Below, piece by piece: positions 3,276 through 48,340 of a DNA stretch of 64,000 bases. The translations under genes were made by a program, and so were the position numbers. A model generated the notes under the pieces. That model saw only the letters and a list, made by a program, of their open reading frames with translations, was not told the DNA's origin and did no database searches. The stretch lies in IMG/VR virus record IMGVR_UViG_2563366947_000002. One strand, written 5' to 3'. Each line of letters begins with the position of its first letter. Position 1 is the first letter of the stretch. Source of the DNA: a virus (lineage: Duplodnaviria > Heunggongvirae > Uroviricota > Caudoviricetes).

Positions 3276-3578
3276 ATGACCAAAAAAATTAACATAAAGG
3301 ATTTCAGGGATGCGTGGCTTGATGATTTTTTTGAATTTTCAACACCACATAGAAAGATACCTCCTGATATTCATATGACATTGTCACGGAAGTTGGACAT
3401 TATCAATGCCGCAACTACCTGTAAGGATTTAAGATCACCACCAGGCAATCGGTATGAGGAACTGTCAGGGAAGCTAAATGGCTATTCATCAGTAAGGGTG
3501 AATAAGCAATATAGGTTAATTTTTAAGTGGGTTAACGGAAAGGCCGAGGACTTGTATCTCGACCCTCACAAATACTAA
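3276..3578 (+). CDS. higB: HigB-type toxin (RelE/ParE superfamily)
   Basis: 100 aa; C-terminal YRLIFKWVNGKAEDLYLDPHKY matches HigB killer-protein pattern; followed by HigA-type HTH gene. Confidence 0.7.
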   Translation: MTKKINIKDFRDAWLDDFFEFSTPHRKIPPDIHMTLSRKLDIINAATTCKDLRSPPGNRYEELSGKLNGYSSVRVNKQYRLIFKWVNGKAEDLYLDPHKY

Positions 3579-3648
3579 AACAGATACCCGGTTACGGACC
3601 GGGTTCTGACCAGAGTCCACTTAATACGCACGCTAGTAAGGGCAAAAA

Positions 3649-3987
3649 ATGAAACAGGCAACCAGAAAACCGACGACCGTAGGTGATATCCTGCTGTACG
3701 AATACCTGGAGCCATTAGAGCTGAAGATCAACGAGTTAGCAGAAATACTTCATGTTCATCGTAACACCGTAAGTGCTCTTGTTAATAATAATCGTAAGCT
3801 AACGATGGATATGGCATATCGCCTGGCAAAAGCATTCGATACTTCTGTAGATTTTTGGATTAATCTTCAGACCGCAGTAGATCTGTGGGAAGTCGAAAAT
3901 GATATGCGCGTTCAGGAAGAGTTAAGTCGTATCAATACTGCTGAAAAATTTATTTCTCAGCGTAACCTGAATAAAAAAGCAGCCTGA
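3649..3987 (+). CDS. higA: HigA-type antitoxin (XRE-family HTH)
   Basis: 112 aa; VGDILLYEYLEPLELKINELAEILHVHRNTVSALVNNNRKLTMDMAYRLAKAF matches antidote-protein HTH pattern; downstream of higB. Confidence 0.7.
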   Translation: MKQATRKPTTVGDILLYEYLEPLELKINELAEILHVHRNTVSALVNNNRKLTMDMAYRLAKAFDTSVDFWINLQTAVDLWEVENDMRVQEELSRINTAEKFISQRNLNKKAA

Positions 3988-5236: not shown

Positions 5237-6433
5237 TTAAGAACCTTTCTTCACATACTCCATAAACATTTTTTCAGCTTGCTCAGGTGACGTTCCTGCC
5301 ATGACAAGCGCATCAATGAACGCCTGCTTCTTCAGTGCGAACTGATCGGCAAGGCGTTGCTGAAGCTCCTTGTTTTTCTGTTTCTCACGTTGCAAGGCCG
5401 CTTCTTTTGCTGCCGCCCGTTTTTTCTGTGCGTCTGACAACTTTCTGGCTTTGGTCAATTGGTCACGTAGCTTGTCAATTTTGCCGTTGTCCTTTGCCAG
5501 TTTTGTGCTTAAAGCGGCCTGGCGCTTCTGATAGAGCCTCCATTCGCGCTTGGCAGCGTCAACGTTTGTTTTACTGTTGCGATTGCGATTAAACTCCCTC
5601 TCGTCTTCTTTTGAGAAGTGTTTGGTTGTACGGCGGCGATCGTCACCAAATGCAATTTGCGTTGCGGCCTTTTGTAACGCACGAGCAATACTCATTTGCC
5701 AACTAGCGGACTGTAACCGCGTCATTGAGTGGATCACGTGTTTACAGGCGACGCCTTGTAGCTTAGGGTTACGAACTTTTGGATAGGCGTATTCTTTTGG
5801 CGGGGCCAGGGCAAAGTTACCCGCAGTAGCGATGTAACGATACCAGTATTGATGACGACCACAGTCACAATCGAAAGACACCCGCCCGGCGCACAGTGAT
5901 TTAGTGATTTTCAGAGCTGATTTATCGTCTTCTGCGATGTCATCGACCATCTGATCCCATTCTTCAAAGCGTATCCGGACGATATGGTGCTGGTGGACGG
6001 ATATATCCGATGCTTCTACGCGGATATTAATCACGTTGTGGCGAAGAGATACGGGTGTAGCTCTTTTGATACCAGATCCGTCATCCACGGCGTTATTTGC
6101 ACGCTTAATATCGATTGCTTGGCTGGATGCCACCAGCTGGGCGTATGTGATGCCAGCCGTCTTGCTGTCATATTTTTCGCGTGTTTTACTCCGTAGCTTT
6201 TCGAAACCTTTCAGGTCGTCTCGCGTGAAGAACGTGCCGCCTTTTTTCTTCCCTAACTTGAGAATATCTTCGGCGGATTTGTTCCTCAGTCTACCTGGCG
6301 TCAGCGTCCGGTGAGCTTGTCGGCGCTTACGGGTTTGTTCTTTCCTGATAAGGTCGAATAAACGCGTGAAGTCCTTAGAGGACAGGCCGTCAGTGATATA
6401 GCGCCCGTCCTGGTTTTTCAGGAAATCAGGCAT
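5237..6433 (-). CDS. hypothetical protein with SWIM-like zinc finger and coiled-coil C-terminus
   Basis: 398 aa; CDCGRHQYWYRY...ACKHV resembles CxC...CxH SWIM motif; overlaps upstream 109-aa gene by 8 bp. Confidence 0.45.
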   Translation of the reverse strand: MPDFLKNQDGRYITDGLSSKDFTRLFDLIRKEQTRKRRQAHRTLTPGRLRNKSAEDILKLGKKKGGTFFTRDDLKGFEKLRSKTREKYDSKTAGITYAQLVASSQAIDIKRANNAVDDGSGIKRATPVSLRHNVINIRVEASDISVHQHHIVRIRFEEWDQMVDDIAEDDKSALKITKSLCAGRVSFDCDCGRHQYWYRYIATAGNFALAPPKEYAYPKVRNPKLQGVACKHVIHSMTRLQSASWQMSIARALQKAATQIAFGDDRRRTTKHFSKEDEREFNRNRNSKTNVDAAKREWRLYQKRQAALSTKLAKDNGKIDKLRDQLTKARKLSDAQKKRAAAKEAALQREKQKNKELQQRLADQFALKKQAFIDALVMAGTSPEQAEKMFMEYVKKGS

Positions 6434-13771: not shown

Positions 13772-14343
13772 ATCATTTCAATCTCCATCTGATACAACGC
13801 CATTTCATCGGCATTGTGCCGTATGAAATCTGCTTTTCCGCCTATTTTTCCATCAGCATGAACAGGGACCAGCCAGGGATATTGTTCTCGGACCTCGGCT
13901 GGCGCTGCGTACTGGTGGTGCCATTTACACAAAGGGAGGACATATTTATGCGCGTTCTCTGCCGTTCTCCCGAAGATATGGTGCAGGGATACTACTGGGC
14001 TATGTTGCCCGTGAATATGGCAGGCAATGCAGGGGAGAGTACCGATAGCGGTCTGTATCCGGCGTTCATCGGCTGTGAGTGATCTGCCCTTCAGGCCGCG
14101 TGACGTGCGTGTTTTTTTGGACGGAGCGGATACAGCTTTCTCTTTTCTCCGCTGGTCATATTGCTTTGCTTTTTCAATTTTTTTTTGCCGATATTCAGGC
14201 GATGCGGCTTTTTCTCTCGCTCGCTGCTGCTGGCGTTGAGCTTGTTGAAGGCGCTTTGCCCTTTGTTCCTCTCGCCAGGCTGGGTCAGCCAATTTTTGCA
14301 TGGCTTTTTGTCTCTGTTTCTCCCAATAACTCTGTTTCTGCAT
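13765..14343 (-). CDS. Ref-like HNH endonuclease with basic low-complexity N-terminus
   Basis: 192 aa; K/R/Q-rich N-terminal 90 aa then CIACHIHGQHSPVVSLHHIFGRTAENAHKYVLPLCKWHHQ HNH motif. Confidence 0.5.
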   Translation of the reverse strand: MQKQSYWEKQRQKAMQKLADPAWREEQRAKRLQQAQRQQQRAREKAASPEYRQKKIEKAKQYDQRRKEKAVSAPSKKTRTSRGLKGRSLTADERRIQTAIGTLPCIACHIHGQHSPVVSLHHIFGRTAENAHKYVLPLCKWHHQYAAPAEVREQYPWLVPVHADGKIGGKADFIRHNADEMALYQMEIEMIN

Positions 14344-14391
14344 GATGGCTGCCTCTTACTTATCAGCGATTTTTTTATGATTGATCAATAT

Positions 14392-14425
14392 CGTTAGATA
14401 ATCAAAATTGATTTTCTAACACAAA
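14392..14425. promoter_or_regulatory. putative operator pair (inverted) in divergent promoter region
   Basis: CGTTAGATAATCAAAATTGATTTTCTAACACAAA; two motif copies head-to-head. Confidence 0.5.
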
Positions 14426-14615
14426 ACATTAATATCTTCGCTGATAACTGTTTGGAGGACATGATGCTTATAGCTTTAAGTGCGATCCACCAGCCATCTG
14501 TGAACGAGATCGGTCTGTTCTATGTGCTGTTTTTCGGGGCGTTGGCGCTACTTGAACTTGGTATTGAGCTTTTTGCCGTGCTGATGTTTTGCGTCACGAT
14601 GCTGGGGAAATTTTG

Positions 14616-15239
14616 ATGGTGAAACGTGTTTTGAAAATTTACATCGCGGGGCCGATGACTGGTTATCCAGATTACAACCGTGCGGCGTTTGATGCGAAAG
14701 CGAGCGAGCTGATGGCTGAAGGGCATATCGTTCTGAATCCAGCTGTGTTACCTGGTGGCCTTTGTCAGAGTGAATACATGGATATTTGCCTGGCAATGAT
14801 GCGTTCTGCTGATGCGATCTATCTGCTTAAGGGATGGGATGTGTCCGCAGGAGCACGTGCAGAACACGCTCTGGCTGAAAAACTGGGGTTGACGGTAATT
14901 TATGAAGCACCATCTGACACAGATTGCAGAATGGCAGCGCATCTTTACCGTGAACTGGTCGATGCGTTACGTGATGTTGCTATTGAATGTCACGGCACGG
15001 ATCAGCTTCGCGCCCGCTTAAGCAATACCCTTTCCAGTTACCTGTCTTTAGCTGAAGGATACAACCTCCGGCAGCGGAGAATGGTCAAATTAATCACGCG
15101 TTTATCTCAATCCCTGGCAAATGCCGAACCAACTAATCCGCTACCTAATGACGCAATGAATTATCTGAAGTCATGCGGCGTTGTTTCTGAAGATGCAGTT
15201 CGTTTTGTGGAGTTTATGTCTCAGAGGATGTCGGCGTGA
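14616..15239 (+). CDS. nucleoside 2-deoxyribosyltransferase-like (DUF4406-like) protein
   Basis: KIYIAGPMTGYPDYN Rossmann-like N-terminus; ORF track starts at TTG 14589, ATG at 14616 has SD. Confidence 0.45.
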   Translation: MVKRVLKIYIAGPMTGYPDYNRAAFDAKASELMAEGHIVLNPAVLPGGLCQSEYMDICLAMMRSADAIYLLKGWDVSAGARAEHALAEKLGLTVIYEAPSDTDCRMAAHLYRELVDALRDVAIECHGTDQLRARLSNTLSSYLSLAEGYNLRQRRMVKLITRLSQSLANAEPTNPLPNDAMNYLKSCGVVSEDAVRFVEFMSQRMSA

Positions 15240-15553
15240 GCTGGCGGGGGTGGGGAAGGGCAGGAATCATGATACTCCGCCAGTGCGCCGGAACTATGAC
15301 GGTCGAGAGTATTGGGAAGCTGATCGGTCGTACCGGTGATGCCGTCAGGACTAAAGCGCGAGAGCTTGGGATCAGCATGATTCTGAAAGGTGACTTTCAC
15401 CAGTCAGCCAAATACCGGCAGAGCGATATAGAGCTGGCGCGGCAGCTTCATCAGTGTGGCGTTCCCCGCCGTGAGATCGCAGAAAAACTCGAAATGCCCC
15501 TGGGCATGATTAATCAGTACGTTTATTTCGAAAGGAGAGTGTATGAAGTCTGA
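15236..15553 (+). CDS. putative HTH DNA-binding protein
   Basis: 105-aa ORF; start uncertain. Confidence 0.35.
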
Positions 15554-15902
15554 AGGTTTAACGCCCGCACAACTGGCAGAGCGTAACGCTGAATTACCCA
15601 GGATTACCCAGGAAAAAGCCTTCCACATACTCGAACGATTAGAAACGCTCGCTACGGAGGAGGATATATCCCCGGAGAAACTGGTTGAGTTCAGCCGTGT
15701 GATATTGCGTCGCAAGAACGATATGGAGCGGCTGACATCTGGCGCTCCATCCTTATCAGTCAGTCCAGCGCTTTATTGCAGCTTCTGCAACAAATCCCAG
15801 CACACCGTTAAAAAGTTAATTGCTGGGGACGCCGTTTTCATCTGCGACGAGTGTGTGGATGCGTGCAACAACGTTATCCGGGAAGAGGACTTAAGAAAAT
15901 GA
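15543..15902 (+). CDS. ClpX N-terminal zinc-binding-domain (ZBD) homologue, standalone
   Basis: C-terminal [40 protein letters not shown] closely matches E. coli ClpX residues about 12-50 (C4 zinc ribbon); no AAA+ domain follows. Confidence 0.7.
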
Positions 15903-15978
15903 ATGACGAATTTGACCGCTTTGAATTTTAACGGGGCGCACCGTCGCCCCGCATGGGAGGGGGATACGATGAAAAAAG

Positions 15979-16269
15979 ATGAGGCAGAATCCAATGAATA
16001 TCGACACGACAATAACGATCGATACGCTCCTAAATTCCGGTCTGGCACTTCTCGGTTGGTTTTACATCATGTTCAGTGCGGGGAAGTGGGCGGCCTCTGT
16101 TTTTCTAAAGCAGTGGGGAAAGCGCCGCAAACAGGAAAAACGCCAGAAAGCGTTGGAGGCGTTCTATGACGCATTTGAACTTAGCCGCATTGAACCAGGC
16201 ACAACAGCCAGGATAGCGACAAAAGGCGACCTGATGATAGTGATGTTCAGACAGGAGAAAACCAAATGA
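15979..16269 (+). CDS. small membrane protein
   Basis: 96-aa ORF with hydrophobic N-terminal helix. Confidence 0.35.
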   Translation: MRQNPMNIDTTITIDTLLNSGLALLGWFYIMFSAGKWAASVFLKQWGKRRKQEKRQKALEAFYDAFELSRIEPGTTARIATKGDLMIVMFRQEKTK

Positions 16270-16490
16270 CAGAACAGACGATGACAAATCGCGAACTTGT
16301 TGATGCCGCGATTGAACTTGCTGGCGATTTTTATTCCATGATGGGGTACACGCATCGCCCAGGCTTCAAATATTGGGAGTCTCCGCACCCGCAAGAGCAA
16401 CGGGTATTTCAAATGGCCTGTCGCGCTTTTGAAGTTATTCGCGGTTCTGATGTGATGGACGCGGTTGCTGATTTGGAGGATGAAGAGTGA
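16266..16490 (+). CDS. hypothetical protein
   Basis: 74-aa ORF, 4-bp overlaps with neighbours. Confidence 0.35.
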   Translation: MTEQTMTNRELVDAAIELAGDFYSMMGYTHRPGFKYWESPHPQEQRVFQMACRAFEVIRGSDVMDAVADLEDEE

Positions 16491-23047: not shown

Positions 23048-23119
23048 GCTGCAAAGTGCTGGTGCTTTATGCCTGTGAAGTTTATAATTGTGTACACATA
23101 ACGAGTACACGAGGTGTTT

Positions 23120-23341
23120 ATGCAATCCATTAACTTCCGTACCGCGCGCGGCAACCTTTCTGAAGTGCTCAACAATGTTGAAGCCGGGGAAGAGGTTGAA
23201 ATCACCCGCAGAGGCCGTGAGCCAGCAGTAATTGTTAGCAAGGCTACTTTTGAAGCCTACAAAAAAGCGGCGCTGGATGCCGAATTTGCATCCCTGTTTG
23301 ACACCCTGGACTCCACCAACAAGGAACTGGTTAACCGATAA
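23120..23341 (+). CDS. phd: Phd antitoxin
   Basis: [49 protein letters not shown]... matches P1 Phd as I recall it; ATGA overlap with doc. Confidence 0.9.
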
Positions 23342-23721
23342 TGAGGCATATATCACCGGAAGAACTTATTGCGCTTCATGATGCGAATATAAGCCGCTAC
23401 GGTGGCCTGCCGGGAATGTCAGATCCGGGTAGGGCAGAGGCCATTATCGGGAGAGTTCAGGCCAGAGTTGCCTACGAAGAGATCAGCGACCTTTTCGAAG
23501 TCTCCGCCACCTACTTGGTGGCTACAGCGAGAGGGCATATATTCAATGATGCCAATAAGCGTACCGCGCTAAACAGTGCGCTGCTATTTCTACGCCGTAA
23601 CGGGGTTCAGGTATTTGATTCACCTGAACTGGCAGACCTTACTGTAGGCGCTGCGACTGGCGAGATATCTGTATCTTCTGTCGCCGACACGTTACGTAGA
23701 TTGTATGGTTCTGCGGAGTAG
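23341..23721 (+). CDS. doc: Doc toxin (Fic-family kinase)
   Basis: 126 aa matching P1 Doc as I recall it, including [11 protein letters not shown] Fic-like motif. Confidence 0.9.
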
Positions 23722-40054: not shown

Positions 40055-43000
40055 TTAGGCCGCATCGGCGATTATTTTACGCAGTTCATCTACCGAGTAA
40101 CGCGTAGATACCATCCATGCAGGACGGTCAAAGTTCACATCAGCAACCGGGTTTGCTTCAAAATTCCAGAAACGCCCGCCAATCTTCTTAATCGCGTCTT
40201 TGGCGTTCCGTATTGTCGAGGAACCTGGTTGGTCGGCAATGAGATAAACCGCGCCAACGTCCTCGCTGACGCTCCACCAGCGCCCGCGAACACGCGCCTT
40301 AGCGCGAATCGGCTTATCATTAACCACAATGATATAGTCATCATTCGCCGCTTCATCAGCTCTGGCTTCAGCCACTGCCGCCTGCTCTTCTCTTTTGCTT
40401 TCAGCCTGCTCAAGCCTTTCCGCGATCTCTGATTCAGTGGCCCCGCCGTTTTTCAGCGATACATAGTCCTGCCACGTTGACGATTTGAGCGTATCCGGCA
40501 ACTCATTCACATAGTCGCCGTCTTTCAACTCACGGGCGCGGCGGGTAGCCATTTCTACCAGGCGATTAACAGAAACAGCATCAGCAAAATCGTCCTTACT
40601 AATGTGTTTTTCATCAAATGCATTGATGACAGCCCCCACCTTAATCCACTGTGCTGCCGGTGATTCCAGGGGGTTATCAGCCTGAACAATGGCGAGTTTC
40701 GCTCCATCTACCCCATTATTCGCCAGCTGTTCCAATGCCGCCCATCCATCTGCATCACTGAGTGATTTATATTGCTCAAACAATGCATCGCGCCAGGCCA
40801 CCAGCGCAGAACGTGTTTTTTCGATCTTCGCCTTAATTTTCGCGATCTTGACCTGATTAAACATCCGTTCAATATCATCGATATTGCTAAAGGCTTTCAT
40901 CCTGCCCTGGAATAAACGGTATGCCAGCACGGTCCTCCAGAATGATTCCAGACCTTCTCCGGACGGTTTGCGGAACAAGCTAAGAATATCTTCAGAAGTG
41001 ACTTTATTAAGCGAACGACCTGACAGACCACGCCCAGCCATCCAGTTTTCGAACTCCTGGGCAACATCATCCATCGTTGCCTGTGCGCCCCATGCCTGCA
41101 TTCCCTGGATGTAATCATACCCATACAATGCCTGGAGGAATCCCTCGCCGTCCACGATATTCAGCGGGTTATCACTGGCTTGTATTTTTGCCACTTCACG
41201 CTTCAGCGCCTCGTCGTTGCCATCAGGATATATCCATCGCTCAGGTGCTATATCCGATGCTCGCCCGATTTTTTGGCCTATCACGCCATCATAGGCCGAT
41301 GACAGCGCGATCTGACCATCATCTGTGCGATATGCCCAGTATTTAATAGCTGACCCACCGCCCCATGCATTACCAGGTTTACCAGCAATAACATTCATTA
41401 CCCCATTGCGAATAGCATCATAGAACTGATCGCGAGTAAGTATTGTTGATAGCTGGTGGCACTGAACACCTCGCGCAGCCGTTGCGCGCGATTCAGCTAC
41501 CCCCTCTTCAAAAGTTACCGCTTCAATCACAGAGTCAAACGGCAATGTAACGATTGACCCCGGTGCTCGAGCGTAACGACTTGCTCTATCCAGCCAGGCG
41601 ATACGGCAGAGGTATTGTGCTTTTTCACCGTCAATTTTTTCCACCCGGACAATCGCTGTTGTTTCGCGATCATCAATGACTGCACGGTAATAACTACCTT
41701 TATGCAACAGGATATTCTTGTCAGTGCGCATATATTCCTGTGGGTTCTGAATAACATCGATACTGATATCCAGCACACCAGACTTAATAGCGCGCTCCAC
41801 ATCACCACGAGAGCGTTTCATTATGGTATCCGCGTCTTTTGCCCTGGTGATCGCAAACCGCAGCACCCGCGCACGTTTTCTGTAGCTACTCAACTGCTCA
41901 AGCGCGTATTTTTGCCCATTCCTGTTCGTACCCGCTTTTATCAGGTCGTCAAGATTTCGCTGGTAATACTCTATCTGTTCCATCGCGCTTTTCAGTTCTG
42001 TCTCCATCATGCCGATATCTTTTCCGGCGGCGTTTGCCGCTTTCAGGTAGATATCGAGAGCATTGTTGGCCTCGCGCTGTGCTTTCAGTTTCAGACGTTC
42101 TTCACGCTCTTGCGCCTGGCGAGCCATGATTGCGCGGCGTTCTTCCGGGTTTGCCGCCAGCATAATGGCGCGTTCATCAGCATCATCCGCATCACCATTG
42201 GCGATCTCTGACATGTCGGAGGTCATCACCATCTTGATCCAGTCTTTCTTACGTTTAAGCGTATCCAGACGGAAGTCATCGAATGTGCCTTTGCCACAAT
42301 AGTAGTGAACATTGACCTTTTCTTGCGGTGAACCTACGCGCGCACCGCGCCCATTTCGTTGGTCGATACTGGCTGGTGTCCAGGGTAGTGTCAGGTGGTG
42401 GATATCGGTTGTCCCGATGTGCAGGTTAATACCTACTTCAGCCTTCTTGTTACAGATTATGATGCGCGTGCGACCTTCGTTATAGTCGGCGGCAATACCT
42501 TCCATGCCCTCAAGGCCAGCATCATTTTTAGCGGAGAGATAATCCTCATATTGGGCAAGTTTGCTGTAGTAGGTTTCCCATGCCCCTTCTTTGTATTCAC
42601 CGTTTTTGTTTGGAGTAGGTTCGGTCGGCTTATTCACCTTCTTCAGTTTGATGCCACCAGCCTGGCTAACTGTCGTCGCATTGATAATGCCAATCTCCTG
42701 CTCCGGCATTTGCAGTGCACTGGCGATAATACGGCGCAGCTTCTGGTGCTGGGCTTTTTCATCAATAAAGACGATCTGCTTACCGTTCTTCAGACCTTCA
42801 CGAAGATTTTCGATCAGCGCGGCATACTTCGGCGGGATGGGGTGCGATACCTGCTGCATATCAATGCCGGCAGCCGCAATGGCCTTCAGTATTTCAGCTT
42901 CCAGTTCAATGCTGGCACGTATTTCAACATGCGTCGGATGTTCACTAAAAGCGGTCTTCACTACCTTGCTGGTACGCGTACTGACCAGCCCGCCAGCGCC

Positions 43001-46000
43001 GTCTTCCTCGGCCTCATCAACATCATCTGCCACTTTACCGCCAGCTACTTTTGGCAAGGCATCAGCAATAGCTTTTACCTGGTCTGCAAGCTCAACGGGG
43101 AACTGGAATGTAATCGCACTGGCATACAGATCCGGGTCTATAGCAACCTTATCCATGTCACGGATGATGGAGAAGATGAAATCATCCGGTTTGTCGTTAG
43201 TGATATGCCCGTTTTCATCGACTGTCAGCTCATCATTGCGACTTAACTCCTGAGCACGCTTACGAAGCTCTTCATAAGCAGTCTCCTGCTCCCCTGTCAT
43301 CGGGATCTGCAAGGTGTTCTCGATGATGTCGGGAATTTTAACCGTCGCTCCGACATCTGCAGCAGTCTTCAGAGTGGCCCAACGATGGAAAATACCACGC
43401 AGGCCGTCAAGGTTCTGGAAGCCCACCAGCCCCTGCTTCTCTTCCACTTCCCCGGAAATTTTCTGGACCTGAACTGTGGCTGTTTTGCCAAACACACGAA
43501 CGAAATCATCAGGCGTAATGATGCCCATACGCATCCACTCTTCCTGCGGAATGACAGTAGACAGCATGTTGAAGGCATCAATCGGACTGTTCACCAGCGG
43601 TGTTGCCGTCAGCATGACTACACCACGCCCGTTGTTGCGTTTCATCATGTACGCAGCTTTTACAGCCATGTCGCGGGCCATCTTGGATACTGCCGGGTTA
43701 GGCAAATATGCCAGTTGTCCCGCTTCACGCCCGGCATTAAAGGAGTTGCGGTAGTTATGCCCCTCGTCGGCAATCACGCTATCGAAGTTCATATCCTCAA
43801 AGTACGGGATATTTTGCTTCTTCGTTGTACCGGTATTCGCGGCCTGATCCTTAATCTTGTTCTTCTTCTGCGCATCACGGTGTTTACCGGACGCCAGGTC
43901 AAGACGCCCCATTTCCACAGCATTAAAGACAGCTTGCTGTGAGTTCTCCTCGATGGTTTTTTCTCGTAGCGGGATAGACGCGAATTGTTCTTTTGTCATG
44001 ATGACCGTTCGCCAATTTGACGACGGGATCATGTTCATACGCTGAACGATAACGGCGCTGGAGGACTCTTTCACAACATTTCTGGTAAGAGGCTGCCCGT
44101 TACTGTCGAGGCGTGGTTCGCCATTTTCATCAAGCACCGGCGCGGTCAGAATATTTCCGCTGTCATCACGAACTTCATCCAAACCGATAAACATCATATT
44201 GGCGAAGGCGTCAGCACTGTAGAAACTCTGTGCCTCGTGATACCAGTTCTGATAAACCGCCTTCGGAACAACAATACACGTGCGTTTAGTGCGACCTGTT
44301 TCGAAGTTATACGCCTCAAGCGCAAGCGCGGTCGTGGTTTTACCCAGCCCGGTACCAAATCCCATGATGCCGCGCCCATCTTCTGACAAGCGCCGAACTT
44401 CTTCATTCTGATAAGTAAGAGGAATGCGCTTTCCACTAAGCCCTTCCAGGCCAAGCGGTGCGTCAGAATGCGTGAACGGAATGAAACCATTGAATGCGTC
44501 GTTATACTCGCGGGCTATCTGATCAGCCTGCGGGTGAGTGCGTAACCAGTCGTTAAAACTAACTTCCAGTTGAGCAATTTTATCCAGGTACTCGTTAGCG
44601 TTCTGCCCACGCGGTTTAACACCGTTCAGGTAGTTTTCTAACTGGTTCAGGAAGCCGTCTTTATTGTTGGCCTTCTTGAACTCATTCCCGTTTTTGCCGT
44701 TTACGGTTCGTAGCTGATAGCCGGTAAATACCCCGTCCTTACCTTCGTAATCGTCCGGAGATACCAGAATGCCATCGACGACCTTCAGATCAGGTTCAGT
44801 GTACTTAAACTCGTCATAGCCCTGCTCTGCCAGGAACTCTTTTATCAAGCGGCGATCCAGCCAGCGGGCATTCAGATTAACGGTGACTTTATTTAGTGGC
44901 GTGAAAATACGTTTCTCTTCGATTTTCGCCAACTGACGCTCAAAGTTCGCTTTCTGCTCACCTGTTGACGCATCACGCCAGCCCATCAGCAATGCTGTTT
45001 TGGTTGCAATATCGCCGCTGGTGGCGCGGTCCATCGGCAGCAGGCAGCCATACCCATCAATAGCGATATCATCAAATTTCGCCAGGAATTCAAGGGCCGC
45101 GTCGTCGTCCTCTGGCAGTTCACCAGCAAACGCCTCACGAAAGTCTCCCAGCGTTATAGGATTAAGGGCTACATCACTGAAAAGATGTGCTATCACTTGT
45201 TCAGGACGGGTAAAGTCAATACCGGCAGCACCATCCGTTACATCAAGTCGCCCTGCCAGAAGGTCAGAAGTGGAACCATCCTGTTTCACATTGCCAGTGA
45301 ACGTCATCCAGTTTTTAGCGCCAGCTTCAGCAAGCCCATTCAGCTTAATCGCGTGCGGTGGTCCATACTTCGCAACTTCTGCTGCCGCCAGGCGGGATGC
45401 ATCTGCCAGTTTGTCATCAACGTTCGCCCCCAGGTTACGCAAATCAAGTGCCTTGTTGATCAACTGCCCTATCAGCGCACCGCGCATAACGCGCTCTCTG
45501 TCTTTTTCTCGCTGCTTGTCAGCAAAGCGAATCATTGCTGCCACTTCATCACTGACAACCGATGGATAGTCGGACGCGATCGCCGATATCTGGTCCCATG
45601 ACAAAGCCAGAATCCCGTTTGTTGACTGGAACGCGATCTGCAGATCGCCAAACGTCGAAACACCATATCGACTTACATCAAGCGCGGAGGATTTGGTTGT
45701 CGTGTCCTTAACCCATTTCAGACCATCAAACTCATGCCAGATACCGCCTACAAGGCGTTTATCGCCCACTTTCGCGCCCTGCCATGCCTGAGTAGTTACG
45801 CCGAGCAAATCCCAATTGATGCGACTATCAAAGCGACGAGATAGCGCGGTTTTCATCGACTCATTGGATACACGACCGTCTTTTTTCACTACCAGGGTAT
45901 TGCGGAAGCTGGTGCGTTCCATGTCGCCGTAAACAAATCGCTTCCCTTCGGTTGTAAACCATTTCCCTTTGAGGAAGGTATCCCAAAGGACGTTTGCCGA

Positions 46001-46891
46001 TTTGAGCGTTGCATCATCCGTGTCGGGGATCATCTCCAGGAAGGTTTCCGGGTGTTTACGCAATACCCATACGTCCACCACGGTATCTGTACCGGATTCG
46101 CTGAACGTACCAGAAGGCATACGATGTGCGCCCAAAAATTCCGCTTTACGGCTGACTTTATCGCGCAATTTTTTGTATTTCGTACCATCGGTCATGCCAT
46201 TCGGCACCACCAATACAATTAGTCCACCAGGCTTAACCTTGTCGATCGTGCGCAACACAAAGTAATTGCCAACGTTCTTCTCGTTTGCATATGCCGGATC
46301 AAGCCCGGCAACGCCGGAACGCCCTTCACCAAACGGTACGTTACCAACAGCGTGGTCATACATTGCGTCTTTCGCCGCCAGTGCCTCAAACGCCCCGATA
46401 TTCACATCGTCTTCCGGGTGCAAAAGCTGGTTTATTCGACCAGAAATCGGAGACAGTTCGGCGCTGGTCATTATCATGCCCTGCCGTTTTGTCTCCTGGA
46501 AAATACCTGTGCCCGCTGATGGTTCCAGTACGTGCCCGCCATCAATACCGTAGTCAGCAAACAGATCCCATATACCTTCAGCCATAAACTGTGGCGTGTA
46601 GTATTCGTATTGGCTGCCCTCACCATCTGTCAGGCCACCTTCACCGGTATACCCGGCAAGAATCTGACGTTGTTCGTCAGTTAATTTCGCCCCATCGAAG
46701 CCGGGCGGAAGGGAATTAAGAAGATTTACTGCGGCGTTGTTTGCTGCCCGGCGTGTTTTCTGAATACTGACGCCATCGGCTTTCCTGACGCCAAAGGTCG
46801 CAACAGCACGTAATTTATGCAACCGACTAACAATCTCAATCAGTTCGCCTAAGCTGGAGGCTTCACTGATTGAATGAAGTAGTTTGTCCAA
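40055..46891 (-). CDS. darB: giant N6-adenine methyltransferase / SF2 helicase fusion protein (DarB-like antirestriction protein)
   Basis: About 2,278 aa from TTG at 46891 (GAGGGGG SD); MTase motif I VLEPSAGTGIF and motif IV GNVPFGEG near N-terminus; helicase motifs GLGKTT, VIADEGHNYRN, MLTATPLVNSP, QRNGRGAR; ORF-track N-terminal extension to 47080 runs into the IS. Confidence 0.6.
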   Translation of the reverse strand: MDKLLHSISEASSLGELIEIVSRLHKLRAVATFGVRKADGVSIQKTRRAANNAAVNLLNSLPPGFDGAKLTDEQRQILAGYTGEGGLTDGEGSQYEYYTPQFMAEGIWDLFADYGIDGGHVLEPSAGTGIFQETKRQGMIMTSAELSPISGRINQLLHPEDDVNIGAFEALAAKDAMYDHAVGNVPFGEGRSGVAGLDPAYANEKNVGNYFVLRTIDKVKPGGLIVLVVPNGMTDGTKYKKLRDKVSRKAEFLGAHRMPSGTFSESGTDTVVDVWVLRKHPETFLEMIPDTDDATLKSANVLWDTFLKGKWFTTEGKRFVYGDMERTSFRNTLVVKKDGRVSNESMKTALSRRFDSRINWDLLGVTTQAWQGAKVGDKRLVGGIWHEFDGLKWVKDTTTKSSALDVSRYGVSTFGDLQIAFQSTNGILALSWDQISAIASDYPSVVSDEVAAMIRFADKQREKDRERVMRGALIGQLINKALDLRNLGANVDDKLADASRLAAAEVAKYGPPHAIKLNGLAEAGAKNWMTFTGNVKQDGSTSDLLAGRLDVTDGAAGIDFTRPEQVIAHLFSDVALNPITLGDFREAFAGELPEDDDAALEFLAKFDDIAIDGYGCLLPMDRATSGDIATKTALLMGWRDASTGEQKANFERQLAKIEEKRIFTPLNKVTVNLNARWLDRRLIKEFLAEQGYDEFKYTEPDLKVVDGILVSPDDYEGKDGVFTGYQLRTVNGKNGNEFKKANNKDGFLNQLENYLNGVKPRGQNANEYLDKIAQLEVSFNDWLRTHPQADQIAREYNDAFNGFIPFTHSDAPLGLEGLSGKRIPLTYQNEEVRRLSEDGRGIMGFGTGLGKTTTALALEAYNFETGRTKRTCIVVPKAVYQNWYHEAQSFYSADAFANMMFIGLDEVRDDSGNILTAPVLDENGEPRLDSNGQPLTRNVVKESSSAVIVQRMNMIPSSNWRTVIMTKEQFASIPLREKTIEENSQQAVFNAVEMGRLDLASGKHRDAQKKNKIKDQAANTGTTKKQNIPYFEDMNFDSVIADEGHNYRNSFNAGREAGQLAYLPNPAVSKMARDMAVKAAYMMKRNNGRGVVMLTATPLVNSPIDAFNMLSTVIPQEEWMRMGIITPDDFVRVFGKTATVQVQKISGEVEEKQGLVGFQNLDGLRGIFHRWATLKTAADVGATVKIPDIIENTLQIPMTGEQETAYEELRKRAQELSRNDELTVDENGHITNDKPDDFIFSIIRDMDKVAIDPDLYASAITFQFPVELADQVKAIADALPKVAGGKVADDVDEAEEDGAGGLVSTRTSKVVKTAFSEHPTHVEIRASIELEAEILKAIAAAGIDMQQVSHPIPPKYAALIENLREGLKNGKQIVFIDEKAQHQKLRRIIASALQMPEQEIGIINATTVSQAGGIKLKKVNKPTEPTPNKNGEYKEGAWETYYSKLAQYEDYLSAKNDAGLEGMEGIAADYNEGRTRIIICNKKAEVGINLHIGTTDIHHLTLPWTPASIDQRNGRGARVGSPQEKVNVHYYCGKGTFDDFRLDTLKRKKDWIKMVMTSDMSEIANGDADDADERAIMLAANPEERRAIMARQAQEREERLKLKAQREANNALDIYLKAANAAGKDIGMMETELKSAMEQIEYYQRNLDDLIKAGTNRNGQKYALEQLSSYRKRARVLRFAITRAKDADTIMKRSRGDVERAIKSGVLDISIDVIQNPQEYMRTDKNILLHKGSYYRAVIDDRETTAIVRVEKIDGEKAQYLCRIAWLDRASRYARAPGSIVTLPFDSVIEAVTFEEGVAESRATAARGVQCHQLSTILTRDQFYDAIRNGVMNVIAGKPGNAWGGGSAIKYWAYRTDDGQIALSSAYDGVIGQKIGRASDIAPERWIYPDGNDEALKREVAKIQASDNPLNIVDGEGFLQALYGYDYIQGMQAWGAQATMDDVAQEFENWMAGRGLSGRSLNKVTSEDILSLFRKPSGEGLESFWRTVLAYRLFQGRMKAFSNIDDIERMFNQVKIAKIKAKIEKTRSALVAWRDALFEQYKSLSDADGWAALEQLANNGVDGAKLAIVQADNPLESPAAQWIKVGAVINAFDEKHISKDDFADAVSVNRLVEMATRRARELKDGDYVNELPDTLKSSTWQDYVSLKNGGATESEIAERLEQAESKREEQAAVAEARADEAANDDYIIVVNDKPIRAKARVRGRWWSVSEDVGAVYLIADQPGSSTIRNAKDAIKKIGGRFWNFEANPVADVNFDRPAWMVSTRYSVDELRKIIADAA

Positions 46892-46899
46892 AGGATTAC

Positions 46900-48340
46900 C
46901 CCCTCTAAACCGTAAAAATTCCGCTATGCGGTACGGTTGAGAGGGTATGGAGAATGTTATTTTCAGCGAAAACCGCCGAGAACCCTCGCCCAGTGCTGGC
47001 GGGGAGGAACGGCGGAAAAGCCCAAAGGGCTTTAAAAAAATCATTACGGTGTTAGCATAAAAGCCTGTATCAATGAGCAATGACTATGTTAAGAGCGACA
47101 AAAGTACGTATATACCCCACTCCTGAACAGGCTGAATTTCTCAACGCCCAGTTCGGTGCGGTGCGTTTTGCGTACAACAAAGCTCTTCACATCAAAAAAC
47201 ATGCTTACCAGCGACACGGAGTAAATTTAAGTCCGCGTAACGATCTGAAACCGTTGTTGTCTGTGGCCAAAAAGTCCCGCAGATATGCCTGGCTCAAAGA
47301 GTTTGATTCAATGGCATTGCAACAGGCGGTAATTAATCTTGATGTGGCATTTTCCAACTTTTTTAATCCGAAGCTGAAAGCCCGGCTTCCGACTTTCAAG
47401 AGAAAGAACGGCTGGCAATCCAGCTATCACTGTGTCGGGATTAAGGTTCTGGATAATGCCATCAAAATCCCCAAACTTTCCCCGATTGAGGCACGCCTTC
47501 ATCGTGAACTTCATGGAAAGCTGAAAAGCATCACTATCACTCGTTCTGCGACGGGGAAATATTATGCGTCGCTACTCTGCGATGATGGCATGGAAACGCC
47601 AGCCAGACCTTCCATGATATCCCGCGTGACGGGGATAGATATGGGATTATCGCACTATGCCATCAAGTCCGATGGGGTAAAAGTTGCTAACCCTCGCCAT
47701 CTCATCAATGCCAGCCGTAATCTGCGACGCAAACAAAAAGCGTTATCTCGCAAGCAAAAGGGAAGCGCAAATCGCAAAAAGGCCAGAATCCGTCTGGCAG
47801 CGTTACACGAACGGGTAGCCAGTGCCCGTGCCGATTTCCAGCACAAGTTATCTCGCGCAATTGTTGACGAAAACCAAGCGGTAATTGTGGAGACACTGAA
47901 AAAAGCCAACATGATGAAAAACCACAATCTGGCGAGAGCGATAGGTGATGCCAGCTGGCACAGTTTCATCGCAAAGCTGGAGTACAAGGCGATGGAAAAA
48001 GGCGTTCACCTGGTAAAACTCGACCAATGGTTTGCCAGTTCGAAAACGTGCCATTGTTGTGGTTACAAAATGCCGGAAATGCCACTTCATAAACGCATCT
48101 GGCGATGCCCGGAATGCAGTATTGAACATGATCGCGACATCAATGCGGCACTCAATATCCGGCAAAAAGGAATACTGGAACTACAGGCGGCGGGACTCGT
48201 CGTTTCTGCCCATGGAGGCCAGCGTAAATCCGTCATACAGACGGTTGCGGCCTAAGAAGTGGGAAGCCTCGCCCGACAGGGCGGGGAGCAGTCACGGGGA
48301 CGATACTACCGTCAAAATCACATACTCCCCATAGTTTGCC
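46900..48340 (+). mobile_element. IS200/IS605-family insertion sequence carrying tnpB only; boundaries approximate
   Basis: Intact tnpB flanked by subterminal imperfect hairpins (CGCC...GGCG near 46986-47003 and CGCCC-gaca-GGGCG near 48270-48287); no tnpA. Confidence 0.6.
47080..48255 (+). CDS. tnpB: TnpB (OrfB) RNA-guided endonuclease-type transposase accessory protein
   Basis: 391 aa; MLRATKVRIYPTPEQ N-terminus, RuvC-like GIDMG, zinc finger CHCCGY...CPEC, C-terminal HDRDINAALNI. Confidence 0.85.
   Translation: MTMLRATKVRIYPTPEQAEFLNAQFGAVRFAYNKALHIKKHAYQRHGVNLSPRNDLKPLLSVAKKSRRYAWLKEFDSMALQQAVINLDVAFSNFFNPKLKARLPTFKRKNGWQSSYHCVGIKVLDNAIKIPKLSPIEARLHRELHGKLKSITITRSATGKYYASLLCDDGMETPARPSMISRVTGIDMGLSHYAIKSDGVKVANPRHLINASRNLRRKQKALSRKQKGSANRKKARIRLAALHERVASARADFQHKLSRAIVDENQAVIVETLKKANMMKNHNLARAIGDASWHSFIAKLEYKAMEKGVHLVKLDQWFASSKTCHCCGYKMPEMPLHKRIWRCPECSIEHDRDINAALNIRQKGILELQAAGLVVSAHGGQRKSVIQTVAA

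Follow-up and report, generated by a model that had tools for sequence, protein, structure and literature searches.

The window analysed here, a stretch of 64,000 nucleotides from a Caudoviricetes virus (IMG/VR record IMGVR_UViG_2563366947_000002), carries on its forward strand at positions 15543 to 15902 a complete open reading frame (ORF) of 119 codons plus stop. The predicted product ends in a zinc-binding domain (ZBD) of the type that opens the host AAA+ unfoldase ClpX, while the motor of that enzyme is absent. We tentatively read this small phage protein as a decoy of the ClpX N-domain, which would compete with ClpX for its adaptors and substrates. The identity of the domain, its conservation together with a family-specific helical hairpin, and published work on the isolated ClpX domain are the basis of this proposal.

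Residues 78-114 match the Pfam family PF06689 (zf-C4_ClpX) with E = 4.6e-17 and 62.1 bits, against a gathering cutoff of 27, and the match spans profile positions 2-39 of 39. When the 119-aa protein was compared with the sequences of the PDB, ClpX N-domains were the only matches; with phmmer the ZBD of E. coli ClpX (2ds5, 1ovx) aligns to residues 76-115 with E ~3e-17 and 30/40 identical positions. The four cysteine ligands C79, C82, C101 and C104 (codons at 15777, 15786, 15843 and 15852) have the ClpX spacing C-x2-C-x18-C-x2-C and are equivalent to C14, C17, C36 and C39 in ClpX numbering, in which F81 corresponds to F16 and V111 to I46. A single-chain AlphaFold2 model built from a 57-sequence alignment, with a mean predicted local distance difference test score (pLDDT) of 77, consists of a short N-terminal helix, a hairpin of two helices (residues 23-39 and 44-66), a low-confidence linker (67-76, with residues 69-73 below a pLDDT of 50) and a zinc ribbon followed by a helix (77-118). 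With Foldseek the modelled ZBD was placed on the ClpX structures 2ds5, 2ds6, 2ds7 and 2ds8 with a root-mean-square deviation of 0.6-1.0 Å and template-modelling (TM) scores, normalised to the target, of 0.87-0.91 (71-76% identity to 2ds5, 2ds6 and 2ds8), and the next-best folds (LIM, RING) had E > 0.8. Since the Pfam and PDB matches are to ClpX, the superposition on the crystal structures is close and other zinc folds stay at E > 0.8, sequence and predicted fold both indicate a ClpX-type ZBD, specific to ClpX, and not a generic C4 ribbon. The preliminary description of this DNA had taken the C-terminal ~40 residues for a near-copy of the ClpX zinc ribbon and had proposed alignment with ClpX N-domains as a check; the alignment bears that description out.

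The same description had pointed out that no AAA+ ATPase follows the ribbon, and this stands as well. The NCBIfam equivalogs for ClpX (TIGR00382 / NF003745) reach 44-45 bits against cutoffs of 359-371, and only on model positions 5-48; no AAA+ module was detected in the protein, which stops 4 residues past the ZBD. Downstream of the gene lie an ORF with a DUF4752 domain and small phage genes.

The protein belongs to a family already annotated as phrog_6797 (E = 1.2e-55, residues 16-118 on profile positions 3-105 of 107) and, in RefSeq, as 'ClpX C4-type zinc finger protein', with no function assigned. A search of 5.8 billion proteins returned 458 matches, the close set of which measures 102-121 aa and comes from E. 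coli, Salmonella and E. marmotae. Many relatives of 106-120 aa, among them orf93 of phage D6 and gp19 of phage P88, are named 'carboxylate--amine ligase'. We reject this name: in a protein of only 119 aa, Pfam and NCBIfam matched nothing besides the ClpX ZBD, and a ligase catalytic domain (ATP-grasp or GCS2-type) is lacking. The name is a propagated misannotation.

Hairpin and ZBD are inherited as a unit in the viral collection. A profile of the hairpin only retrieved 36 IMG/VR loci (L017-L052), and the ZBD follows the hairpin in the same ORF in every one of them, although in two it is frameshifted: in L026 and L033 a frameshift after CDEC costs the ZBD its helix and leads into the next gene downstream, so that fused ORFs of 282-293 aa result. 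The ratio of nonsynonymous to synonymous substitution rates (dN/dS, omega), computed pairwise for six homologues, was ~0.09-0.37 in the hairpin for the closer relatives (one near-identical pair gave 1.27) and ~0.18-0.69 in the ZBD; in the linker it ranged from 0.4 to 2.4, with values of at least 0.7 in 10 of the 13 computable pairs. As omega is low in hairpin and ZBD and high in the linker, the two modules are under purifying selection of comparable strength and are joined by an essentially unconstrained tether. Ten residues of the hairpin are invariant (alignment A3). Residue conservation in the ZBD was surveyed in 18 distinct family domains using the numbering of the ClpX literature: the four cysteine ligands, F16, K19, G30, I35, E38, V40, C43, N44 and I47 are invariant (18/18).

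The ZBD of ClpX is a docking platform for SspB, RssB and trigger factor and for N-domain-dependent substrates such as lambda O and MuA. Its residues F16 and I46 form a hydrophobic pocket onto which trigger factor, lambda O, SspB and RssB dock, and lambda O requires the domain (PMC7804408). The pocket residues are kept in the phage family, F16 in 18/18 domains and I46 as I, V or L in 17/18 (I in 8, V in 8, L in 1, with A in the remaining one). Because fold, ligands and pocket are kept and the motor is absent, a competitor for ClpX ligands is the simplest reading of the sequence. The behaviour of the ClpX domain itself is in line with this. Its removal abolishes the RssB-dependent degradation of sigma-S but not the degradation of ssrA-tagged substrates; added in trans at 5-20 µM, the isolated ZBD inhibits RssB-mediated sigma-S degradation by 0.6 µM ClpXP, and it crosslinks to the C-domain of RssB (PMC7226468). 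Since an isolated ZBD can inhibit ClpXP in trans, competition by a free one is mechanistically plausible. In addition, the predicted succession of a folded domain, a free linker of ~10 residues and a docking module is a layout like that of ClpX adaptors.

The mechanism that we propose would run as follows. The small phage protein would display a free ClpX N-terminal ZBD on a flexible tether; if produced in excess during phage gene expression, this domain would bind ClpX adaptors and substrates and keep them off the ClpX hexamer. ClpXP proteolysis that depends on the N-domain would be slowed selectively, and substrates recognised directly by the pore would be spared. Through self-association, or by binding one particular partner, the hairpin would increase specificity or avidity. 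The possible benefit to the phage would be the stabilisation of its own proteins, a block to toxin-antitoxin or abortive-infection responses triggered by proteolysis, or the exclusion of ClpX-dependent competitors such as Mu.

Members of the family are carried by D6-like phage-plasmids, the region being matched by 250 PLSDB records, by ~108-kb elements with ParA, here taken to be SSU5-like phage-plasmids, and by P2-like prophages together with phage P88 (gp19, YP_009113062, L016 4001-4333). In the P2-like elements the gene is found between the portal gene and replication gene A, in a variable region that in P2 is the site of tin and old and a documented hotspot of antiviral genes. Among 5,426 complete E. 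coli genomes, 241 (~4%) were positive, the gene being located at 172 plasmid and 103 chromosomal places. When one genome per species was scanned with the hairpin profile no locus was found, and the family therefore looks like a narrow accessory phage gene.

An Ead/Ea22-like gene is a near-constant neighbour: it lies at most ~1.2 kb away in 35 of the 36 viral loci, mostly directly upstream, with stop and start codons that often overlap or abut (L011 5439-5999 is an example of such a gene). This proximity may reflect functional coupling or mere residence in a cassette array rich in Ea22 genes. No other partner gene is shared by the different contexts: the candidates in P2-like prophages, neighbours of 143 aa in Salmonella and 169 aa in E. 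coli, proved unrelated to each other. In most P2-like loci, but not in the Salmonella one, the ZBD gene follows a pair encoding a ParM/StbA-like ATPase and a Plasmid_stab_B protein (L002 6439-7714, L009 4439-5714 and, in P88, L016 2662-3937), an unexpected finding of a plasmid-type segregation module in integrating phages. A known defence system was also considered and discarded: PADLOC-DB gave no match for the ZBD protein or for its ParM-like, StbB-like, 66-aa, 169-aa, Ea22-like and 143-aa neighbours.

The preliminary description had further connected the domain with Phd, an antitoxin encoded in the same DNA. The gene is indeed present, phd at 23114-23341 being followed by doc at 23341-23721 (Pfam PhdYeFM_antitox and Fic/DOC). 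However, P88 possesses a family member but lacks phd/doc, and the phd/doc carriers P1 and P7 were absent from the phage matches. This distribution does not support a specific tie between the ZBD gene and the addiction module; Phd could be one of several clients, with nothing here pointing to it. A second toxin-antitoxin pair of the window, higB/higA at 3276-3987, encodes a HigB-like toxin and a helix-turn-helix antitoxin.

The copy in the window has a hybrid start. Over positions 15236-16300 (1,065 bp) identity is 97% to phage D6 and 100% to two Salmonella enterica plasmids, CP123682 and NZ_CP032492. The latter, pSL26_91, is known from S. Typhimurium ST213 as a plasmid prophage of the D6-like type (PMC6799933). 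The D6 homologue, orf93 (YP_009914770, 106 aa, L001 6329-6649), is 98% identical over residues 21-119 of the window protein. In D6 it is preceded by orf91 (5308-5664), annotated as 'hypothetical protein' and resembling the adjoining Ead/Ea22-like genes, and by the Ea22-like orf92 (5661-6329), whose stop overlaps the start of orf93. The window protein is composed of the 17 N-terminal residues of an orf91-type gene, then LPR, then orf93 from its residue 9, and ~980 bp of D6, comprising most of orf91 and all of orf92, are missing, so that the upstream Ea22-like gene is gone. The same form of leader is found in the 90%-identity clusters P0001, P0003 and P0004 (17, 57 and 98 member sequences) and in the viral contigs L037, L038 and L040. 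Because the ORF shares its first 50 nt with the beginnings of other, unrelated genes of related D6-like plasmids (H99-H104), the leader marks a cassette junction. In another relative, P0032, an Ea22-like coiled coil is joined directly to the linker and ZBD, without the hairpin. Judging from this protein and from the window copy, the ZBD gene recombines with adjoining Ea22-type genes.

A number of observations weigh against the decoy reading. Inhibition in vitro took a ~10-30-fold molar excess of the free ZBD (PMC7226468), and literature searches returned no experimental work on any member of the family or on a characterised standalone phage ZBD. The conservation of F16 may be structural, as this residue sits between two zinc ligands. 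Moreover, a decoy does not account for the near-constant Ea22-like neighbour or for a hairpin whose conservation is roughly equal to that of the ZBD. Reuse of the domain outside ClpX is documented: zf-C4_ClpX is an accessory domain in some cyanobacterial sigma factors (PMC11119718), and bacterial proteins were found that pair the ZBD with a second zinc ribbon. Within the 18 family domains, positions conserved on the surface of ClpX are systematically changed (G18 to N or K, P31 to D or E, Y34 to F or C, with L42 variable), hence the ligand specificity may differ from that of ClpX. Finally, the family ZBDs are 58-78% identical to that of E. coli ClpX (23-31 of 40 residues), and their mean identity to it, 69%, equals the mean identity within the family; this value would fit descent from a ClpX-like ancestor and adds no evidence for selected mimicry. 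Some of these observations are what one would expect if the ZBD served, independently of ClpX, as a zinc-stabilised module for dimerisation or peptide binding, whose partner would most plausibly be the Ead/Ea22-like protein, or else another phage product or a host factor not involved in proteolysis. The near-constant Ea22-like gene, usually immediately upstream, the natural fusions of Ea22-type N-termini to the ZBD gene in the window and in P0032, the use of zf-C4_ClpX in proteins other than ClpX and the altered surface residues all speak for such a role. On the other hand, the window copy and its close relatives are intact even though no Ea22 gene adjoins them upstream, an Ea22 neighbour is missing from the Salmonella P2-like locus, and an identity to ClpX of this degree, extending to the ligand pocket, is more than dimerisation would need. 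We consider this explanation rather improbable.

A different role for the hairpin is offered by the idea of a retargeting adaptor, in which the hairpin would hold a protein of the host or of a rival phage and the ZBD would dock on ClpX, perhaps in a mixed dimer with one of the N-domains, so that a new target is degraded or remodelled by ClpXP. A binding domain followed by an unconstrained linker of ~10 residues and a ClpX-related module is the layout of a tethering adaptor such as SspB, the constraint on the hairpin with its ten invariant residues would be accounted for, and ZBDs do dimerise (PMC7226468). Nevertheless, the six ZBDs of a ClpX hexamer already pair at high local concentration, which should make a mixed dimer unfavourable, there is no known target, and no relatives of the hairpin were detected beyond the family; we regard an adaptor as unlikely. 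In a broader formulation, possible yet doubtful, a ClpX docking domain captured by temperate phages of enterobacteria and a helical targeting module would together make a programmable hijacker of ClpXP recognition, acting either as a selective decoy that disarms toxin-antitoxin or abortive-infection immunity and stabilises phage proteins, or as a mixed-dimer degrader. As regards the window copy alone, it might be a dead remnant of recombination, an Ea22-type start set on a truncated ZBD gene after a deletion. The loss of ~980 bp relative to D6 and the replacement of the usual MTTSHSA start would agree with this, as would the PLSDB gene table of pSL26_91, which omits the ORF (L008 12308-12667, equal to window 15543-15902) and skips locus tag RS24890; that table leaves out pseudogenes, and the skipped tag may reflect a pseudogene call by RefSeq. 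However, the frame is intact, the Shine-Dalgarno site is good, hairpin and ZBD are complete, the leader form recurs in the three clusters and three contigs named above, and P0001, 99% identical, is listed as a protein in NCBI. A dead copy is therefore very improbable. Returning to the decoy reading, we retain it as our tentative preference.

The features of the gene are collected in the table below. The ORF starts before the upstream gene (15236-15553) has ended, and this overlap of 11 nt suggests translational coupling of the two; by its PHROG match (phrog_323) the upstream gene encodes a D5-like DNA-binding protein. Between ref and ppp/pdcB, a long series of small accessory genes is encoded on one strand, and the ZBD gene is one of them. 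Directly upstream and in the same operon, positions 14589-15239 encode a protein with a DUF4406 domain (residues 16-105) and a C-terminal extension of ~110 residues. No match to the P1 C1-operator was found in the window with up to 3 mismatches allowed, and no sigma-70 consensus promoter in 14200-16400. Elsewhere in the window, the minus strand holds a very large ORF of 2,341 aa (40055-47080).

Table. Features of the gene encoding the free ClpX-type ZBD (window coordinates)
Feature	Position	Strand	Description
Whole ORF	15543..15902	+	Leader, helical hairpin, linker and C-terminal ClpX-type ZBD
Shine-Dalgarno AGGAG	15533..15537	+	5 nt before the ATG; read from sequence
Leader, 17 codons	15543..15593	+	Equals the N-terminus of D6 orf91; usual MTTSHSA start replaced
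Helical hairpin, residues 23-66	15609..15740	+	Predicted helices 23-39 and 44-66; family-specific, no known domain matched
Flexible linker, residues 67-76	15741..15770	+	Low pLDDT, high omega
ClpX-type ZBD, residues 77-115	15771..15887	+	Supported by Pfam, PDB and predicted fold

Relatives of the hairpin were sought with several tools. It matched no domain in Pfam, inspected up to E <= 10, or in NCBIfam, and a word-indexed protein search returned fragments of the family only. An exhaustive HMMER search against 1.84 billion representatives recovered family members, including the P88-type subfamily, and one eukaryote-like protein of 650 aa, P0124, which combines five BAG repeats with a ubiquitin-like domain and in which residues 21-70 of the window protein align at ~33% identity to helices 2-3 of each repeat. 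We do not take the hairpin for a BAG domain: the E-value of 1.2e-5 sums over near-identical repeats, of which the highest-scoring single segment reaches 28.5 bits, and neither the Pfam scan at E <= 10 nor a comparison of the hairpin profile with all PDB sequences gave a BAG match. The likeness is probably due to chance.

ClpXP controls sigma-S, SOS proteins, antitoxins, lambda O and MuA, largely through the docking platform of the ZBD. If the proposal is true, the phage protein would represent a new class of viral host-takeover or anti-defence factor, one that naturally and selectively inhibits or re-routes ClpXP recognition, and would offer a ready tool to separate N-domain-dependent from pore-dependent ClpXP proteolysis in vivo. 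If the hijacker formulation holds, whether as decoy or as degrader, it would be the first viral mimic of the recognition domain of an AAA+ protease. D6-like phage-plasmids of Salmonella and E. coli are widespread and often travel with resistance plasmids. Since these elements and ~4% of complete E. coli genomes carry the family, an influence on stress responses or on plasmid addiction, should there be one, would be of epidemiological relevance.

Compared with E. coli ClpX, the window protein has the same Pfam domain, the same ligand spacing, 30/40 identical residues, a predicted fold within 0.6 Å, F16 kept and I46 present as V. Unlike ClpX, in which the ZBD is N-terminal in a 424-aa AAA+ unfoldase, the phage protein has it at the C-terminus of 119 aa, preceded by hairpin and linker, and possesses neither the ATPase nor the ClpP-binding loops. 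With D6 orf93 and P88 gp19 it shares the order hairpin, linker, ZBD, but differs from them in its Ea22-type leader and in the lack of an upstream Ea22-like gene. Free ClpX-type ZBDs are also found in unrelated settings. Pseudomonas phage phi1, which is temperate and D3-like, encodes a ZBD-only protein (ALY08156, 65 aa, L014 2483-2680); its gene comes two genes downstream of that for replication protein P, and the NinG gene follows further downstream. Here too the domain belongs to a temperate phage and to an early, replication-proximal region; however, in phi1 and in other ZBD-only proteins of phages and bacteria the ZBD is N-terminal, there is no hairpin and identity is ~45%. The phi1-type standalone ZBDs are independent acquisitions, and this recurrence counts in favour of the decoy reading. 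Environmental bacteria have other standalone architectures (P0033, P0035, P0040, P0052, P0063, P0099, P0113): in one type an N-terminal ZBD is combined with a second, C-terminal CxxC…CxxC ribbon with a PERG motif, and in another a tandem ZBD-ZBD is followed by a ribbon.

With respect to function, small phage inhibitors of host proteases are known, namely T7 gp4.5 and T4 PinA, which act on Lon, and lambda RexB, which acts on proteases of the ClpP family (PMC10286901). The proposed outcome would be alike, in that a small phage protein would damp a host protease and thereby protect phage proteins or block toxin activation. They are a precedent for the concept by functional analogy, and no relation in sequence or architecture is expected. 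Unlike gp4.5, PinA and RexB, the inhibitor proposed here would be a piece of the recognition domain of the protease itself and would affect only its N-domain-dependent clients. The anti-adaptors IraD, IraM and IraP work at the same node, the docking of an adaptor on the ClpX ZBD, but they do so with unrelated folds on RssB and, like the adaptors SspB and RssB, have no homology to the phage protein; IraD and the ZBD have been proposed to share a site on RssB (PMC7226468). With SspB the likeness is in the tethered two-module layout, although the phage protein would instead be a copy of the docking site. The known kind to which this protein would belong is that of phage modulators of host proteases: the free ClpX recognition domain in temperate phages is real, and its role as a decoy is plausible.

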